A DNA stretch of 23,412 bases from Candidatus Bathyarchaeia archaeon (GTDB lineage: Archaea > Thermoproteota > Bathyarchaeia > Bathyarchaeales > Bathycorpusculaceae), in NCBI GenBank assembly GCA_050010515.1, contig JBEKKX010000038.1, positions 1 through 23,412 of the forward strand, given 5' to 3'. How positions within the stretch are numbered: position 1 is the stretch's first letter; every line of letters starts with the position of its first letter. Below the pieces are notes generated by a model. It ran no database searches, was not told the origin of the DNA, and saw nothing but the letters and a program-made list of their open reading frames with translations. Shown in pieces: positions 2,198 to 8,451 of this stretch. Both the position numbers and the translations under genes were made by a program.

Positions 2198-2467
2198 CCA
2201 GAATTAACAAGCTAAAAGCTAACCGAGCGTTTAACCCACTTTAAGCTGGTTTCCGCTTGGTTGTTCTTGACCCATCAAGATTTTCAGCGATTTAGCTTCT
2301 TCCCGCAATGCGTCAACTTCCCTTTCTAAAGCAGTAGCTTTTGCGTCAGCTGTTTTTTTAAGTTCTTCAATTTCAAGTAAAAGTTTTTTCTCTTCAGCTC
2401 TTAAATTTTTTAGTTTTTCAATTGTGTTTTTGAGGCTGCTCATTTCCTGTTGCCCCTTGGCGGCTAA
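2119..2467. repeat. Copy A of a ~350-bp dispersed cassette (3' end of ORF 1340-2197 plus the convergent coiled-coil gene and its leader)
   Basis: Aligns by eye with the reverse complement of 6847-7211 (shared GCAAGCAGCATGCAACGCGCTGGCT) and directly with 7943-8270. Confidence 0.85.
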
Positions 2468-2632
2468 ATTAAACTTTAATCCCGGATTATTTTTCTCTAA
2501 ACTTGATAGTGAAATAGACCTGTAATATCTTTCTTCTTCTAGCCGCTGTTGCAGGTAAGCTCTAGCATGTTCCAAGAATTTGGTTTTTTGAGAATCAGAA
2601 AGTTCAAGCAAATTGACTGACTTTTCATCCAT
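2231..2632 (-). CDS. Coiled-coil module protein (MSSLKNTIEK... from ATG 2443) with a possible 63-aa N-terminal extension
   Basis: The last 70 aa are highly similar to ORF 8027-8239. Either ATG 2632 (AAGGT upstream) or ATG 2443 (AAGGGG upstream) could be the start. Confidence 0.75.
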   Translation of the reverse strand: MDEKSVNLLELSDSQKTKFLEHARAYLQQRLEEERYYRSISLSSLEKNNPGLKFNLAAKGQQEMSSLKNTIEKLKNLRAEEKKLLLEIEELKKTADAKATALEREVDALREEAKSLKILMGQEQPSGNQLKVG

Positions 2633-2902
2633 TTCTATTTTACCTTGTTTAAGAAATACTGTTTCTTAATAAATCGCTTATTTCAACAGCAAACATATAT
2701 CCAAATTTGAAACATCTTAAATTACGCATAACTAATTATACATACACAATTAAGGATTAATCAGCATCAGTATTCATTCGAAGAGTGAAAGTGGGAGAAG
2801 GTTGGACACGTCGATTATATCAAGATACTTGACTCTTCGAATACAACCAAACAAATGAGCCCCACCTATAGGGCAGGAGTCCACGTCTAAGTAACAAGAA
2901 AC

Positions 2903-5900
2903 ATGAGGATGAAAAAGCTGAAGAAACTACAAGTCATAATAATCGTGCTGCTTTTCATTTCGCTAACAATTTGTACGTTAGTTAATTTCCAAGTTAAGGC
3001 TCAAAGCGCTGCCATCTGGGCTGATAAAGCTGACTATCACCCAGGAGAAACCGTAACCATATACGGTACAGGCTTCCTGCCCAACGCTAACGTAGCCATA
3101 AACGTTACTAAGCAGTCAGACGGAACCGTTAGCAGCTTCAACGTAATCTCAGACTCAAACGGGAACTTTACGACTTCTTACCAAATAGGCAACGTGGGTG
3201 CAACCCTCTATACCGTAACAGCCACAGACGGAACAAACACAGCAACAACAACATTTACCGATAGCACCTTCGGAATTGACACCAACTGCGAAGGGTTTGG
3301 CTCAATTTCCCGTTCGCAGTCGGTCCCAATTACTACAACATCTATGACGGCGCAAGCCAACGAGCTGATAATAATCGTGATCACACAAGGCAATTTAGGC
3401 CCTCGAACATTCGAACATTTTACAATTACCGACAGTTTCAGTAGTCATCTATCGTATACGCAAAGAGGAACCACCCTAAGGAGCGTCAGAAATGGAGAAG
3501 CAATCTCTGAATACTACGCAGTCACCAGCTCATCACAAACAGGATCCTTCAGAATTACCGTAATACCGCATCGTTATAACCGCGAAAACATTGACGTGCA
3601 AGTTTTCGGAATCTTAGGAGCAAATACGGCGAGCCCATTTGACTCTCACTCTGGTTTGCCTTACACAAGTTATTCCAAGGGTAGGAGCATACCGACCGTG
3701 AGGAGAGTATCTACATCCAACGCTAACGACATTATTTTAGGGTTGGAGGGAAACTCAGGCAGTACTGCGGAAACAGCCGGGTCGTATTTCACTGGGACTA
3801 TACTGCATAACGTTAACAGAGAGGGCAATAATGTAGGGTATAAAACTGTAACTTCGACCCTTTCGAGAAGCAGTATCGCATTCGGTACCCGCGTGACCAA
3901 CTGGGTTATGTACGTGGACGCGGTGAGACAAGCGCTTTCTGTTAGTGTGTCTCCTACTTCTTGGACGATAGATATGGGTCAGTCTAAGACGTTTACTGCT
4001 ACTCCTAGTGGCGGTTCAGGTTCTTACACGAGATACCAGTGGTATGTGTGTGAGGTAGCTCAGTCTGGCGCGACTGCGTCAACATTCAGTTATTCTCCTG
4101 CTTCCGCGGGTTCCCATTCGATTACTGTGACAGTTACTGACAGTCTTGACGTGACTTCTCCTCAATCTACTGGGGTTACTGTTACGGTAAATTCTGCATT
4201 GGTTGCTCCGACTGCTTCTGCTTCTGCGGGTACGATTGATCTGGGTCAAACTTCAGCTTTGACTTCCACAGCTGTTTTGACTGGTACAAGTCCGTATACG
4301 TATCAGTGGCTTCAGAAGGCTCCTGGCGCCGGTTCTTATTCACCGATTAGCGATGCGACTTCGTCTGGCTATTCTTTTGTTACTTCCGGTTCTACGACCA
4401 TTGGATCTTGGAGTTTTGAGCTACAAGTTACTGACAATGCTAGTGCGCCAGTTGTGGTTACTTCTACAGCGGTTTCTGTTTTGGTGAATGCTGCTCCGAC
4501 TGTGAGTGTGTCACCTACTTCTTGGACTATGGATGTTGGGCAATCTAAAACGTTTACGGCTACTGCTTCTGGCGGTTCAGCGTCTTACACGAGTTACCAG
4601 TGGTATGTAGATGGGCTGTTAGCTCAGTCTGGGACTGCGTCAGTGATGCCTTTTACTCCTGGATCTTCGGGTTCTTACCTGATTACTGTGACAGTCACTG
4701 ACAGTTTAGGTGTAACTTCAGCTCTGTCTTCCGCTGCTTCGGTTACTGTGGCTGCTTCGCCGACTGTAAGTGTCGCTCCTATTGGTCCGCTTACGATGGA
4801 TGCAGGCCAGGTTCAGGCGTTTACCGCTACGGCCAGTGGCGGTTCAGGCACGATTAATTATCAGTGGTACTTGGATAGTTCTGCGGTTGGCTCTAACAGT
4901 GCAAGTTATTCTTACACTGCTTCAGCGGGTTTGCATTCGGTTACCTGTAAGGTGACTGACAGCGCTTCTACTCCAGTTACTTCTCCTGCTTCTAACGTTG
5001 TTTCGGTTACGGTGAATTCTGCTTTGGCTGCCCCGACTGTGACGACTACTCCTGGCACGGTTGATCAGGGTCAAACAAGCAGTTTGGCTTCTACTGCTGT
5101 GTCTACGGGTACTTCTCCTTACACGTATCAATGGTTTGAGAAGGCTCCTGGCGGAAGTTATGTGATGGTGGGTTCAAACTCTGGAAGTTTCAGTTTTGCT
5201 ACTTCAGGTTCCACGGTTGCTGGTAGTTGGAGTTTCATTCTTGAGGTGACTGATAATGTGGGTGCAGCGGTGAACTCTACTGCTGTCTCGGTTGCGGTGA
5301 ATGCTGCTCCGTCTGTTACTGTGTCGCCTACTTCTTGGACTATGGATGTTGGGCAATCTAAGATATTCACAGCTACTCCTAGTGGCGGTTCTGGGTCTTA
5401 CACAAGTTACCAGTGGTATGTGAATGGGTCTGCTCAGTCAGGGCAGACTGCGTTAACGTTTAGTTATTCTCCTGCTTCTTCGGGTGCTTACTCGGTTACT
5501 GTGACGGTTACTGACAGTTTAGGTGCAACTTCAGCTCAGTCTACTGCGGCGACAGTTACGGTGAATTCTGCTTTGGCTGCTCCGACTGTGACGCCTACTC
5601 CTGACACGGTTGATCAGGGTCAAACAAGCAGTTTGACTTCTACTGCCGTGTCAACGGGTACTTCTCCTTACACGTATCAATGGTTTGAGAAGGCTTCTGG
5701 CGGAAGTTACGTTACAGTGGGTTCAAACTCTGGAAGTTTCAGTTTCGTTACTTCAGGTTCCACGGCTACTGGTAGTTGGAGTTTCATTCTTGAGGTGACT
5801 GATAATGTGGGTGCAGCGGTGAACTCTACTGCTGTCTCGGTTGCGGTGAATGTTGCTCCGACTGTGAGTATTGCGCCGGTTGGTCCGGTTACTTTGGATG

Positions 5901-6976
5901 CGGGTCAAGCTCAGACTTTCACGGCTAGTGCTTCTGGCGGTACGGGAACACTGACTTATCAGTGGTACCTGAACGGTTCACCTGTTGGAGTTGACTCTAA
6001 CACTTACATTTTCAGCGGGTCGGCTGGTTCATACTCGGTTACTTGCACGGTGACGGATAGTGCTTTTGTGCCGGCTTCTGCTGCTTCTAACGCGGTTTCG
6101 GTTACGGTGAACCAACTCACTATTACGGTTACTCAGGGCGCTAACGGTGTCATTGCTCCTGGAACAATCACTGTTAATTATGGTGGTAGTCAGACTTTCA
6201 CCATAACGCCGAATACTGGCTACTACATTGCCTCTTTAAGTGTTGACGGCTCCCCAGTGACGGCTGCGTCATCGTATACTTTCAGCAACATCCAAGCATC
6301 TCACACGATCACTGCGACTTTTGCGATTAACACGTACACGATTACGGTTACTCAGGGCGCTAACGGTGTCATTGCTCCTGGAACGATCACTGTTGATTAT
6401 GGTGCTACTCCGAGCTTCAGCATTACGCCAAATACTGGCTACCACATTGCGAGTATAACTGTTGATGGTGCGTCGGTGGCTGTTACTTCGCCTTCGGGTC
6501 AGACTTACCAGTTTAGCGCGGTTTCAGCTGACGGTTCATTGACTGCGACTTTCGCGATTACCACCTCCACAACACCGAAAGGGTCTTCGCCGTCGCCAAC
6601 ACCGACAGTGTCTTCGTCGTCGCCAACACCGACAGTGTCTTCGTCGTCGCCAACACCGACAGTGTCTTCGTCGTCGCCAACACCGACAGTGTCTCCACCG
6701 TCACCAACACCATTGTATCTAGTGCTTGCCGCTGTCATAATCGTCGCCGCAATCATCATTTTAATCTTTTCAGTAATAGCAATCAAACGTCGAAGACGAA
6801 AACTTGACAGCACATTACCAAACCCTGAAAATAAGTACACAAAAACAAATGTATTAGCCGCCAATGAGGAACAGGAAATAGCCAGCCTTAAAGGTAAAAT
6901 TGAAAAAATAAACAATTTGGAAGCTGAAAAGAAAAAACTTTTACTTGAAATTGAAAAACTCAAAAAAAAGGGCTGA
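2903..6976 (+). CDS. Large cell-surface/adhesin-like protein: signal peptide, N-terminal Ig-like domain, Arg-rich domain, 8 Ig/PKD-like repeats, 2 InlB-B-like repeats, Ser/Pro/Thr linker, TM helix, cytoplasmic coiled-coil tail
   Basis: 1357-aa ORF with repeated Y.YQW...(V/Q/E).VTD motifs, two TITVTQGANGVIAPG repeats, and TM LYLVLAAVIIVAAIIILIFSVIAI followed by KRRRRK. Confidence 0.9.
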   Translation: MRMKKLKKLQVIIIVLLFISLTICTLVNFQVKAQSAAIWADKADYHPGETVTIYGTGFLPNANVAINVTKQSDGTVSSFNVISDSNGNFTTSYQIGNVGATLYTVTATDGTNTATTTFTDSTFGIDTNCEGFGSISRSQSVPITTTSMTAQANELIIIVITQGNLGPRTFEHFTITDSFSSHLSYTQRGTTLRSVRNGEAISEYYAVTSSSQTGSFRITVIPHRYNRENIDVQVFGILGANTASPFDSHSGLPYTSYSKGRSIPTVRRVSTSNANDIILGLEGNSGSTAETAGSYFTGTILHNVNREGNNVGYKTVTSTLSRSSIAFGTRVTNWVMYVDAVRQALSVSVSPTSWTIDMGQSKTFTATPSGGSGSYTRYQWYVCEVAQSGATASTFSYSPASAGSHSITVTVTDSLDVTSPQSTGVTVTVNSALVAPTASASAGTIDLGQTSALTSTAVLTGTSPYTYQWLQKAPGAGSYSPISDATSSGYSFVTSGSTTIGSWSFELQVTDNASAPVVVTSTAVSVLVNAAPTVSVSPTSWTMDVGQSKTFTATASGGSASYTSYQWYVDGLLAQSGTASVMPFTPGSSGSYLITVTVTDSLGVTSALSSAASVTVAASPTVSVAPIGPLTMDAGQVQAFTATASGGSGTINYQWYLDSSAVGSNSASYSYTASAGLHSVTCKVTDSASTPVTSPASNVVSVTVNSALAAPTVTTTPGTVDQGQTSSLASTAVSTGTSPYTYQWFEKAPGGSYVMVGSNSGSFSFATSGSTVAGSWSFILEVTDNVGAAVNSTAVSVAVNAAPSVTVSPTSWTMDVGQSKIFTATPSGGSGSYTSYQWYVNGSAQSGQTALTFSYSPASSGAYSVTVTVTDSLGATSAQSTAATVTVNSALAAPTVTPTPDTVDQGQTSSLTSTAVSTGTSPYTYQWFEKASGGSYVTVGSNSGSFSFVTSGSTATGSWSFILEVTDNVGAAVNSTAVSVAVNVAPTVSIAPVGPVTLDAGQAQTFTASASGGTGTLTYQWYLNGSPVGVDSNTYIFSGSAGSYSVTCTVTDSAFVPASAASNAVSVTVNQLTITVTQGANGVIAPGTITVNYGGSQTFTITPNTGYYIASLSVDGSPVTAASSYTFSNIQASHTITATFAINTYTITVTQGANGVIAPGTITVDYGATPSFSITPNTGYHIASITVDGASVAVTSPSGQTYQFSAVSADGSLTATFAITTSTTPKGSSPSPTPTVSSSSPTPTVSSSSPTPTVSSSSPTPTVSPPSPTPLYLVLAAVIIVAAIIILIFSVIAIKRRRRKLDSTLPNPENKYTKTNVLAANEEQEIASLKGKIEKINNLEAEKKKLLLEIEKLKKKG
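5006..5860 (+). repeat. Near-identical ~306-bp intragenic direct repeats (5006-5311 and 5555-5860) encoding an Ig-like domain
   Basis: Both start GTTACGGTGAATTCTGCTTTGGCTGC and end GTTGCGGTGAATG(C/T)TGCTCCG with few differences between. Confidence 0.9.
6584..6711 (+). repeat. 27-bp coding tandem repeat (4 full units plus a partial) encoding the SSSSPTPTV linker
   Basis: Unit TCTTCG(C/T)CGTCGCCAACACCGACAGTG, contiguous with no spacers. Confidence 0.95.
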
Positions 6977-7211
6977 CGCGAAAGCTGCTACCTAGAGAGT
7001 GAAGTTGACGCACTGCGGGATAAAGTTAAATCGCAAAAATTCTAATGCATGGGTCAGAACCAAGCGTAGACCAGAGGCTCAAAAAAAATTATAAGAACAA
7101 AACGTTCTAAGAATTAAGTTTGTTAGTTCCCAGTTATTGTTGTTCAGGCGTTAAGGGGTTCTTTGGAGAAGAGCGTTGATAGCATGAGCCAGCGCGTTGC
7201 ATGCTGCTTGC
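6847..7211. repeat. Copy B (inverted) of the cassette: coiled-coil module fused to the surface protein, frameshifted distal half, and a relic of the 3' end of ORF 1340-2197 on the minus strand
   Basis: After the TGA at 6974-6976 the DNA still encodes ADAKAAT / LESEVDALRDKVKS / KILMHGSEPSVDQ in shifting frames. 7134-7211 on the minus strand encodes QAACNALAHAINALLQRTP...PEQQ*. Confidence 0.85.
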
Positions 7212-7434
7212 GCGCCGCGTGCGCTGTCAGTCAGTCACATACAGAACATCACACAACGCGAAAGAAAAAATACACTCGCAATAAAGAGCAGGGTAGATTA
7301 TATCTCCTTTAAATATTGTTTTCAAAGGTTCTGGTAACTTGTTGGATGGCACGCGCTCGAAAAAACATGCTTTATCATAAATATAAAATTAAAATACTTG
7401 CTGCTCTGCTAGGGCTTGAGGGGGAAAAAGCAGT

Positions 7435-7674
7435 ATGAGTGAAAATAATGTAACAAAGGAAGCATTAAGGAAAAAATACCTAAAAAAAATAGAGCAAGAT
7501 TTAGATGAATTGAAAAAGAACCAAACCCAATCCCAGTCCCCTGAAAACATAACATTTGATAAAGAAAAGGAAATAGGTTTTACGATAGAACTTATCAAAT
7601 ATTTAACTGCTGAATTGGCAAATACAAAAGCAGAATTATGGCTTCTAAAACAATCAACTAAAGAACCACACTAA
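7435..7674 (+). CDS. Small helical hypothetical protein
   Basis: 79-aa ORF with GAGGGGG upstream; charged amphipathic helices. Confidence 0.6.
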   Translation: MSENNVTKEALRKKYLKKIEQDLDELKKNQTQSQSPENITFDKEKEIGFTIELIKYLTAELANTKAELWLLKQSTKEPH

Positions 7675-7942
7675 GTCTAAATTTCTTTCTATTCTGGAGC
7701 ATCTCCATACTTAATCGTTATTGTATATCTGTATGATATTTGCTTCTATTTTTCCATTCACAGATTAATCAGGCAACATACCAGGCTAACATTCAGTTCA
7801 GTTCTCAAGGCGGAGAAAACCACGAATTCCACAAAAATAGCCGCGAGAAGCTTCATGCCAAAAGCTAACAAAAAACCAAAATTTCTTCGCATTCTATTGA
7901 CTCTAAAGAAATATCCCAAATACCTATAGCAAACGTCATGGG

Positions 7943-8270
7943 AAGAACTCCCATACCGCGTGAACAACAATAACCTGGACTAACAAGCTTAACTATTCTA
8001 GCGCTTAACTAATTCTGCAAACGCATTTATTTTTTTTGTTTCCGGTCTACGCTTGGTTCTGATACGTTCATCAGATTTTTTAGCGATTTAATTTCATCTC
8101 TCAGTGCGCCAACTTCACTTTCTAAGGCGGTAGCCTTTGCGTCAGCTGTTTTTTGGAGTTCTTCAATTTCAAGTAAAAGGTTTTTCTTTTCCGCTTCTAA
8201 ATTTTTTATTTTTTCAATTGTGTTTTTGAGGCTACTCATTTTATGTTTCCCCTTGACGGCTAATACATTT
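7943..8270. repeat. Copy C of the cassette (same orientation as copy A)
   Basis: AAGAACTCCCATACCGCGTGAACAACAATAAC matches the ORF 1340-2197 end (RTP..(P/R)E(H/Q)Q*). Its leader AAATGTATTAGCCG is shared with copy B. Confidence 0.85.
8027..8239 (-). CDS. Stand-alone 70-aa coiled-coil protein
   Basis: Continuous heptads; AAGGGG upstream of ATG; an in-frame stop 18 codons upstream shows it is not fused; TTAAATA box about 55 nt upstream. Confidence 0.8.
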   Translation of the reverse strand: MSSLKNTIEKIKNLEAEKKNLLLEIEELQKTADAKATALESEVGALRDEIKSLKNLMNVSEPSVDRKQKK

Positions 8271-8451
8271 ATCTTTTTAGCACTTAAGACTTATGTATTT
8301 AAGCTCTGTAAAATTACATTTTTCAAAATTGTTGGTTTCTTATATTTTTGGTGGTACAGTGGCTTGGGTGGCTCTTGATAGATGCAGTTTTATATAGGAA
8401 TTAGCAAATTAAACATAACCGTTCAGCTCCATATTGTTGGACTGTGTCTCA

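Follow-up and report, generated by a model that had tools for sequence, protein, structure and literature searches.

A putative portable coiled-coil module of Bathyarchaeia, found as free genes and as the cytoplasmic tail of surface proteins

Heptad helices held at a membrane are known from several systems. In the bitopic division proteins FtsB, FtsL and DivIC, and in the SNAREs, such a helix is joined directly to a membrane anchor and pairs with paralogous helices; the FtsB/FtsL zipper lies outside the cytoplasm, and the SNARE anchor is C-terminal to the helix. Small helical coiled-coil proteins of about 70-90 amino acids (aa) are represented by GapR/UPF0335 (PF10073), a bacterial nucleoid protein that binds DNA as a dimer-of-dimers clamp. 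The general view is that the part of an archaeal surface protein inside the cell amounts to a few basic residues, and little is known of how, or whether, archaeal surface adhesins connect to the cytoplasm. In archaea, type I surface and S-layer proteins combine a signal sequence, Ig-like/PKD repeats, a Pro/Thr stalk, a transmembrane (TM) helix and a basic stop-transfer, and one preprint gives a short basic tail right after the TM helix as usual for S-layer proteins (10.64898/2026.08.21.746120). Here, we describe a 23,412-nucleotide (nt) stretch of DNA (the window), which is one entire contig (JBEKKX010000038.1) of the 2.38-Mb genome of a Candidatus Bathyarchaeia archaeon. A unit of about 350 bp is present three times in it, and the core of this unit is a 70-codon gene for one long heptad helix (the module), found as a free gene, behind a 63-residue extension, and at the cytoplasmic end of a 1357-aa surface protein. 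On balance, we consider it probable that this is a rearranged, three-fold duplicated locus of an undescribed family, whose promiscuous oligomerisation module has become an inherited and selected tail of adhesins. The kind of element, a coiled-coil docking or oligomerisation module, is already known; as a family, it appears to be an undescribed and promiscuous module of Bathyarchaeia. Literature searches over the main text of papers returned nothing on the module family or on coiled-coil tails of archaeal surface proteins.

Compared with these systems, the anchored module resembles FtsB/FtsL/DivIC and the SNAREs in carrying a heptad helix on a membrane anchor and in the coexistence of soluble and anchored versions, whose pairing we infer here. 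No sequence relation to them was seen, and unlike in both, the helix here lies on the cytoplasmic side, as the tail of a type I surface protein whose Ig/PKD ectodomain is large. This tail has 57 residues beyond the basic stop-transfer in the window, and about 100 in intact relatives, against the short basic tail that is usual. GapR/UPF0335 is similar to the module in size and helicity, is its best Pfam hit, and has lent its name automatically to some homologues. Nevertheless, the match reaches only 17.8 bits against a gathering cut-off of 22.6 and covers residues 3-40 of 70, and copy A of the module had no GapR hit in the Pfam search. In addition, the module family differs from GapR in being archaeal, in adjoining a gene for a helical-bundle protein, and in occurring on TM anchors.

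The three copies lie at the positions given by an earlier reading made from the sequence alone (hereafter the sequence-only reading), and all of them match open reading frames (ORFs) of the window. Copy C is the free 70-aa module gene (8027-8239, minus strand), preceded by AAGGGG at 8249-8254; its orthologues, of 66-74 aa, are found in most genomes of the genus. Copy A is a 133-aa ORF (2231-2632, minus), in which the 70 module codons (2231-2443, minus; 75% identity to copy C) retain their own AAGGGG and ATG behind a 63-aa helical N-terminal domain that includes the in-frame leader (2444-2632, minus). Copy B supplies the last 32 codons of the surface protein ORF (module residues 1-32, about 4.5 heptads, codons 6878-6973, followed by TGA; 6878-6976, plus). 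DNA identity is 83% between copies A and C (2248-2467 vs 8044-8263), while copy B is complementary to copy C at 82% (6841-6968 vs 8149-8276) and to copy A at 83% (6854-6968 vs 2353-2467). When the protein of copy C was searched against six-frame translations of the whole genome, copy A was recovered at an E-value of 9.5e-23 and copy B at 8.5e-14, and by these measures the similarity of the three copies is far beyond chance. A fourth and distant paralogue, a 95-aa ORF with 33% identity, lies on another contig directly after a TFB gene (L004 1486-1773).

All three copies have a homologue of the DNA that lies upstream of the start codon in the free gene (the leader), and translation runs through it in frame in copies A and B, as the sequence-only reading had noticed and as the alignment bears out. 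Also as it had stated, the former ATG of copy B is now ATA and the former AAGGGG is now AATGAG. The fusions may have captured the leader, or it may be left over from an older, longer coding sequence; the order-wide form of the family, a zinc (Zn) ribbon followed by a helix and the module, bears on this question. In copy A, the AAGGGG and the module-start ATG are both kept (2441-2460, minus), and the corresponding methionine is present in 24 of 27 alignment rows; it is possible that copy A yields a 133-aa product and, through an internal start, a 70-aa product.

About 57 residues make up the core of the module, a single amphipathic helix in which the heptad pattern is unbroken. L14, L21, L28, L39 and L46 are invariant in 19 sequences and fit a/d positions, as expected of a coiled-coil oligomerisation module, here on one long helix. 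AlphaFold2 (AF2) models agree with this pattern: in a fusion protein described below, the module is helix 2-56 (pLDDT 91; block pLDDT 84-95), and in copy A, helices span residues 13-39, 42-48 and 50-119 (pLDDT 84.8), with the leader and the module merged into the one helix 50-119. No Pfam or NCBIfam model matched the module at its cut-off. A profile built from 19 modules and run against 1.84 billion proteins found 503 at E ≤ 1e-3 and 236 at E ≤ 1e-10. Among the best 150 hits, 84 are free modules, 21 carry a Zn ribbon, 28 have another N-terminus (about 11 of which look like truncated ribbon forms), six are TM-anchored through differing anchors, three carry the N-terminal domain of copy A, two are joined to the 287-aa family described below, and six have another C-terminus (two of them junk repeats). 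A further search aimed at longer proteins gave 39 hits at E ≤ 1e-4 among 488 candidates. These include the N-domain form (131-141 aa), small proteins in which a signal peptide, one InlB-B-like repeat and a TM anchor precede the module (P0011, P0025, P0028 and P0034), a 1096-aa adhesin with a full module tail (P0012), fusions to the 287-aa family (P0029 to P0032 and P0037), and a methyltransferase with a C-terminal module (P0001; precomputed PF08241). Thus, relatives and metagenomes hold the module free, behind the 63-aa N-domain, behind a Zn ribbon, N-terminal on a 287-aa homologue, and behind several TM anchors. The portability proposed by the sequence-only reading is well borne out by these forms. 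Its view of the 63-aa extension of copy A as an unrelated ORF has to be given up: this part alone matches four other loci (L024, L030, L036 and L037; E 2e-26 to 5e-15), recurs in many metagenome proteins, and forms a conserved domain family with an alignment (A4) of 27 rows. The module was found in 92 of 120 genomes of the genus (56 of the 73 high-quality ones) and in 28 of 41 genomes of other families of the order.

The tail-bearing protein of the window (2903-6976, plus) has a signal sequence, Ig/PKD-type repeats, a Pro/Thr/Ser stalk, a TM anchor and a cytoplasmic tail. Four Pfam families match it over their cut-offs, namely BiPBP_C (64.3 bits; >26.8), Ig_3 (58.3; >30), PKD_4 (39.1; >27) and PKD (37.8; >23.5), and it has the features of an archaeal type I surface protein, its C-terminal TM region reading ...LYLVLAAVIIVAAIIILIFSVIAIKRRRRK. 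The TM helix (about 6713-6784) and the KRRRRK stop-transfer (6785-6802) occupy 6713-6802 on the plus strand and are followed by a 25-codon linker (6803-6877, plus), whose 3' part shares homology with the free gene's leader, and then by copy B. Orthologues of 1272 aa and 1541 aa are encoded in genomes G016 and G130, respectively. Two paralogous surface proteins of the same genome end at the point equivalent to KRRRRK or 16 residues later, and neither has a module tail.

Fusions of this kind are present in at least 8 of the 120 genus genomes (G000, which is the genome of the window, G016, G130, G094, G077, G004, G119 and G090). Their absence from related genomes, which the sequence-only reading had named as the outcome that would speak against it, is therefore not what is observed. 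The eight tails have in common I-A/V-S/K/D-L/V-K at the former start and a homologous linker, while their ectodomains differ and the ORFs range from 650 to 1541 aa. Since all B-type copies have the same ATG-to-ATA change and the same linker, the fusion would have arisen once and then been inherited, and the comparison indicates that it is inherited and not an accident of this genome. Full-length tails are found in P0012, P0004, P0011, P0028, P0034, P0147 and G119.

In the simplest locus, that of the one-contig genome G003, there is an HMGL-like gene, one free 70-aa gene, a convergent gene for the 287-aa protein and a membrane protein gene, and no adhesin. In G130, G004 and G077, the adhesin tail is convergent to the 287-aa gene, at the position that the free gene has in G003, and a free copy is located upstream of the adhesin. 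This arrangement explains a fossil of the 3' end of the 287-aa gene that accompanies copy B in the window (7154-7211, minus; 91% complementary to 2119-2176). A second and more decayed fossil of the same 3' end lies downstream of copy C (7943-7992, plus; 72% like 2167-2216), and a fossil of this type is clearer at the C copy of G016. Because copies B and C each bring a fragment of the 3' end of the gene at 1334-2197, the duplicated unit must have been larger than the small gene. Furthermore, a segment of about 4.9 kb that comprises the adhesin, its tail and a 79-aa ORF (2803-7718) is inverted relative to G016 (L024 6645-2244), and G016 has lost the remnant of copy B. In this locus, local duplication, inversion and read-through have clearly shuffled domains.

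In the window itself, the tail claimed by the sequence-only reading is only partly preserved: module residues 1-32 are there, and what follows is a dead remnant. Homology of copy B to the other copies continues beyond its stop codon (6993-7043 vs 2278-2328 at 82%; 6993-7039 vs 8078-8124 at 85%; 7035-7086 vs 8030-8081 at 79%), and the six-frame match of copy C to copy B passes one TGA and one TAA to reach query residue 56. Relative to copies A and C, copy B contains three 1-nt indels. The first, which produces the TGA at 6974-6976, is a +1 shift within the A-run at 6958-6965; a 1-nt deletion follows about 25 nt later, and another lies in an A-run near 7031. Repeat pairs I4 to I6 and the unit alignment trace what is left, out of frame, of module residues ~33-70 and of a C-terminal extension (6977-7110, plus). 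Read across the breaks, this remnant matches the C-terminal part of intact metagenome tails (P0012, 1096 aa, and P0004), including the stretch that follows the module, and hence the window's tail is a cut-down version of a tail of about 100 residues. Judging from these frames, a frameshift has truncated it to a stub, comprising the linker and about 4.5 heptads, and a dead remnant extends from there to about 7110. Contigs of four other public runs span 6665-7065, 6870-7087, 6929-7088 and 6939-7191 without a gap, so the broken state of copy B is real and not an assembly slip. The tail stretch was present in 20 runs from 16 studies of peat and wetland metagenomes, 10 of these runs being flagged as possible sources; no RNA run is listed for 6600-7400. 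Phase variation at the A-run 6958-6965 was considered and dropped: with one A less, the frame still meets a stop because of the next deletion, and the four runs have no length variation.

The part of the tail that is retained evolves under constraint. Over module residues 2-30, all 28 pairwise omega values among the eight tails lie between 0.08 and 0.42 (free genes, 0.07-0.87). In four phylogenetically separate pairs of tails, 28.5 synonymous differences at 66.0 sites and 32.5 non-synonymous differences at 282.0 sites were counted, giving proportions of synonymous (pS) and non-synonymous (pN) differences of 0.432 and 0.115 for the first helix (Fisher p 3.8e-8). Neutral drift of the tail, the check set by the sequence-only reading, is thus not seen in the retained helix, and these values indicate that the first helix is under purifying selection across the eight genomes.

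The main rival explanation takes the tail for a dead duplicate. A copy of the small gene would have come to lie behind the adhesin, the adhesin's stop would have been lost, and a neutral read-through product would have been decaying since, with gene conversion accounting for its conservation. Several findings agree with this. The window copy has lost its ATG and AAGGGG and has three 1-nt indels in its second half, paralogous surface proteins do without a tail, and other obvious read-through fusions of the module exist. One of them joins the module to the C-terminal part of an MjaI restriction endonuclease (L038 1642-2193; PF09568, E 2e-30) and another to a transposase-like fragment (P0097); together with the methyltransferase P0001, they look like further read-through fusions of a locally duplicating gene.

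Other observations weigh directly against a selected and functional tail; the weak constraint on the linker, the homogenisation and the independent truncations among them also favour the dead duplicate. The selection test rests on 29 codons only, and the linker appears only weakly constrained, its pN/pS being 0.16/0.25, 0.12/0 and 0.12/0.27 in comparisons with G016 and G130 and 0.20/0.71 in a further one. There are signs of homogenisation within genomes: the tail of G004 is 92-93% identical to C copies and 83-90% to other tails, and those of G119 and G090 each resemble the A copy of the same genome most (82%). Gene conversion from selected free or A copies could mimic purifying selection. Moreover, at least five lineages among the eight genomes (G000, G016, G094/G077, G130 and G004) have each lost the distal half of the tail on their own, by different stops or frameshifts, which suggests that at least this half is dispensable, and the detection of fusions favours tails that are still open through the first helix. 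With this query, 28 of 120 genus genomes yielded no free gene; in several genomes it is broken or survives as remnants beside the 287-aa gene, so that it is not essential. Finally, docking between the tail, the free module and the 287-aa protein is something that we infer.

Despite these points, we think it unlikely that the tail is a dead duplicate; for the stub in the window, neutral decay with gene conversion is less unlikely. Eight of 120 genus genomes and several metagenome proteins have kept the fusion on ectodomains that differ greatly, and in several cases the tail is complete. Neither a stop nor a frameshift interrupts the linker and the first helix in any of the eight genomes, and in one lineage 17 codons of the linker were deleted in frame. 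The values of pN and pS (0.115 and 0.432) argue in the same direction, and conversion should also have refreshed the distal half, yet precisely that half has been lost. Persistence in eight genomes, full-length tails and selection together weaken this rival. As for the points of breakage, in the window the frame shifts after residue 32; G016 has a stop after residue 34, followed by unrelated DNA; in G094 and G077 the stop comes after residue 38; G130 and G004 shift after about residues 38 and 47, respectively; G090 has diverged after about residue 53; and G119 is complete. That the truncation points all fall in the second half of the tail was dropped as a test, since tails broken earlier would escape recognition as fusions.

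We therefore return to the reading of an inherited tail that carries an oligomerisation module. Under it, the tail would have been kept under selection and would still be of full length (about 100 aa) in some lineages, while in the lineage of the window the +1 shift in the A-run would have cut it to the linker and about 4.5 heptads, with the rest decaying behind the new stop. Module helices might pair with each other, and a membrane-anchored copy under the surface protein could recruit the soluble module proteins of 70 and 133 aa; the 287-aa protein could be recruited either directly or through these two. Alternatively, the anchored module might cluster adhesins. The stub in the window may keep part of the pairing.

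The genomic tie between the module and the 287-aa protein is strong. The 287-aa helical-bundle protein (1334-2197, plus), a core protein of the genus, is encoded convergently to the module gene. It was found in 117 of 120 genus genomes, including all 73 of high quality, usually with paralogues; the genome of the window has a second copy on another contig (42% identity). Elsewhere in the order, the family is patchy (30 of 151 genomes). The module lies within 1.5 kb of the 287-aa gene at 62 of 80 loci, of which 60 have it convergent just downstream (split over two frames in four) and two have it fused to the N-terminus. Further fusions of the module to a paralogue of the 287-aa protein, 310-387 aa long, occur in L027, L028, L029, L032, L034 and L039 and in P0029 to P0032, P0037 and P0058. 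The sequence-only reading had guessed at a tie between the module and a long coiled-coil ORF at 1340-2197; convergent and fused genes make this genomic tie the best-supported part of that reading. A small gene split over two frames or reduced to a short remnant beside the 287-aa gene was observed in L057, L068, L072 and L091 and in G047, G092, G106, G117 and G120, which reflects either repeated loss of the free gene or assembly errors.

The AF2 model of a fused homologue (pLDDT 91.0, pTM 0.60) consists of the module helix (2-56), a loose linker (58-67) and a bundle of six helices that includes a long hairpin. For the 287-aa protein, neither Pfam nor NCBIfam gave a family, fold searches with the fusion model gave nothing specific (best Foldseek E 0.047; VIA-align Z up to 11.3 on generic hairpins), and in the Protein Atlas the best score was 0.79, to unnamed clusters. 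The long antiparallel hairpin of the model (helices 158-221 and 229-283) is reminiscent of CdvA, ESCRT-III and PspA/Vipp1, and VIA-align gave Z 10.1 for PspA and Z 9.7 for Vipp1, amid unrelated hairpins of up to Z 11.3. With hits taken to E 0.1, neither the module nor copy A nor the 287-aa protein matched CdvA (PF18822), and no sequence match to Snf7 models was obtained. A predicted complex of the 287-aa protein (A2) and the free module (A1) scored 0.00 with controls not run, and is evidence neither way.

Directly upstream of the 287-aa gene, 20 nt apart and on the same strand, an ORF (216-1313, plus) encodes a type I membrane/surface protein whose TM helix follows a Ser/Pro stalk and precedes a Lys-rich tail. 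Homologues of it adjoin the 287-aa gene in 16 ORFs of related loci, and Pfam gives only a sub-threshold match to DUF3426. Going by gene order, the conserved core may be a trio of this membrane protein, the 287-aa protein and the small gene.

These associations allow a bolder scenario, to which we give low credence: adhesins might plug, through the zipper helix of their tail, into a sub-membrane assembly of the 287-aa protein and small adaptors. This would be a lineage-specific coupling of envelope and cytoplasm, in which ectodomains are swappable on a constant anchor-plus-tail cassette, and, if true, it would be a primitive counterpart of the linkages between adhesion receptors, adaptors and the cytoskeleton. 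One helix family common to adhesin tails, free small proteins and a core helical-bundle protein does hint at a link from the surface to the interior. Three unannotated protein families (the module, the 63-aa N-domain and the 287-aa partner) are defined here, and they offer concrete and cheap binding experiments in an abundant, uncultured lineage of peat and wetland.

Another possible role of the tail would be confined to the adhesin itself, where the helix would zip adhesins into dimers or oligomers and so raise avidity or clustering, with neither the free module nor the 287-aa protein contacted. Self-association is the commonest role of long heptad helices such as the single one that makes up the module, and the small stand-alone proteins made of a signal peptide, an Ig-like repeat, a TM anchor and the module (P0011, P0025, P0028, P0034 and P0147) fit such a role. 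Yet the tail stays near free and A-type copies, with 74-93% DNA identity over the first helix, so that hetero-pairing is possible, and in G130, G004 and G077 it stands in the place of the free gene, convergent to the 287-aa gene. We regard a purely self-associating tail as quite improbable.

The order-wide form of the family is, in other families of the order, a protein of about 140 aa with a Zn ribbon and the module that is encoded beside a TFB gene. Its two CxxC pairs before the helix are similar to those of Brz-type ribbons, and the best ribbon hit is Zn_ribbon_Brz (PF23454), which at 22.9 and 17.7 bits stays below the cut-off of 27.9. The three copies of the window have no ribbon at all, in contrast to this form, which is probably the older one of the family. 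The distant copy at L004 likewise has no ribbon, at a site where other families of the order encode the Zn-ribbon-plus-module protein. It is very improbable that the module is at root a coiled coil linked to nucleic acids or transcription (GapR/UPF0335-like, or a partner of basal transcription), of which anchored copies sequester the module or its partner: the gene follows TFB directly in L040, L041, L042, L044 and L046 and lies near it in L043 and L045, the genome's own distant paralogue is also placed after TFB, P0185 joins the module (by eye) to a putative winged helix, GapR_DNA-bd is the top Pfam hit and one source names some members 'UPF0335 family', but that match is below the Pfam cut-off with half the model covered, and within the genus the free gene is away from the TFB locus and paired with the 287-aa gene.

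Several further observations concern the neighbourhood of the 287-aa gene. In G003, G004, G130 and G077, cdvA, two ESCRT-III-like genes and vps4 are located beside the locus, and in G130 the CdvA model matches a neighbouring gene at 34.2 bits (>30). In the closest relatives, these genes lie a few kb upstream of the trio (L031 1470-5005; L026 10274-12958; L025 15-1593; L033 9979-10926), and the contig of the window begins just short of their expected position. This proximity is not kept in distant members of the genus, and a link to ESCRT/Cdv was dropped: the distance from vps4 to the 287-aa gene is 6.4, 13.3, 67, 145 and 435 kb in five distant complete or near-complete genomes. Next to fused module-plus-287-aa genes, a conserved protein of about 240 aa is encoded (L028 255-980, L029 3115-3831 and L039 3404-4129), with a PadR-like gene nearby in L028 and L039; a resemblance of this neighbour to nucleotide cyclases was unsupported, with no family found in Pfam. 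In other genera, the 287-aa family is found in open frames of roughly 530-590 aa that contain two consecutive partial matches (for example, G162:C84:10198-11166 and G040:C1:918323-919282), which may be a larger, possibly duplicated form of the family.

Between copies B and C, the window also contains a 79-aa helical ORF (7435-7674, plus) that is 72% identical to a 77-aa ORF of G016 (L024 2280-2513). It belongs to no known family, its G016 counterpart also adjoins the adhesin tail, and it shifts with the adhesin in the inversion. At the far end of the window, tandem repeats of about 126 nt (84-88% identical) run from 22969 to the contig end at 23412 and are probably part of another repeat-rich gene cut by the contig end.

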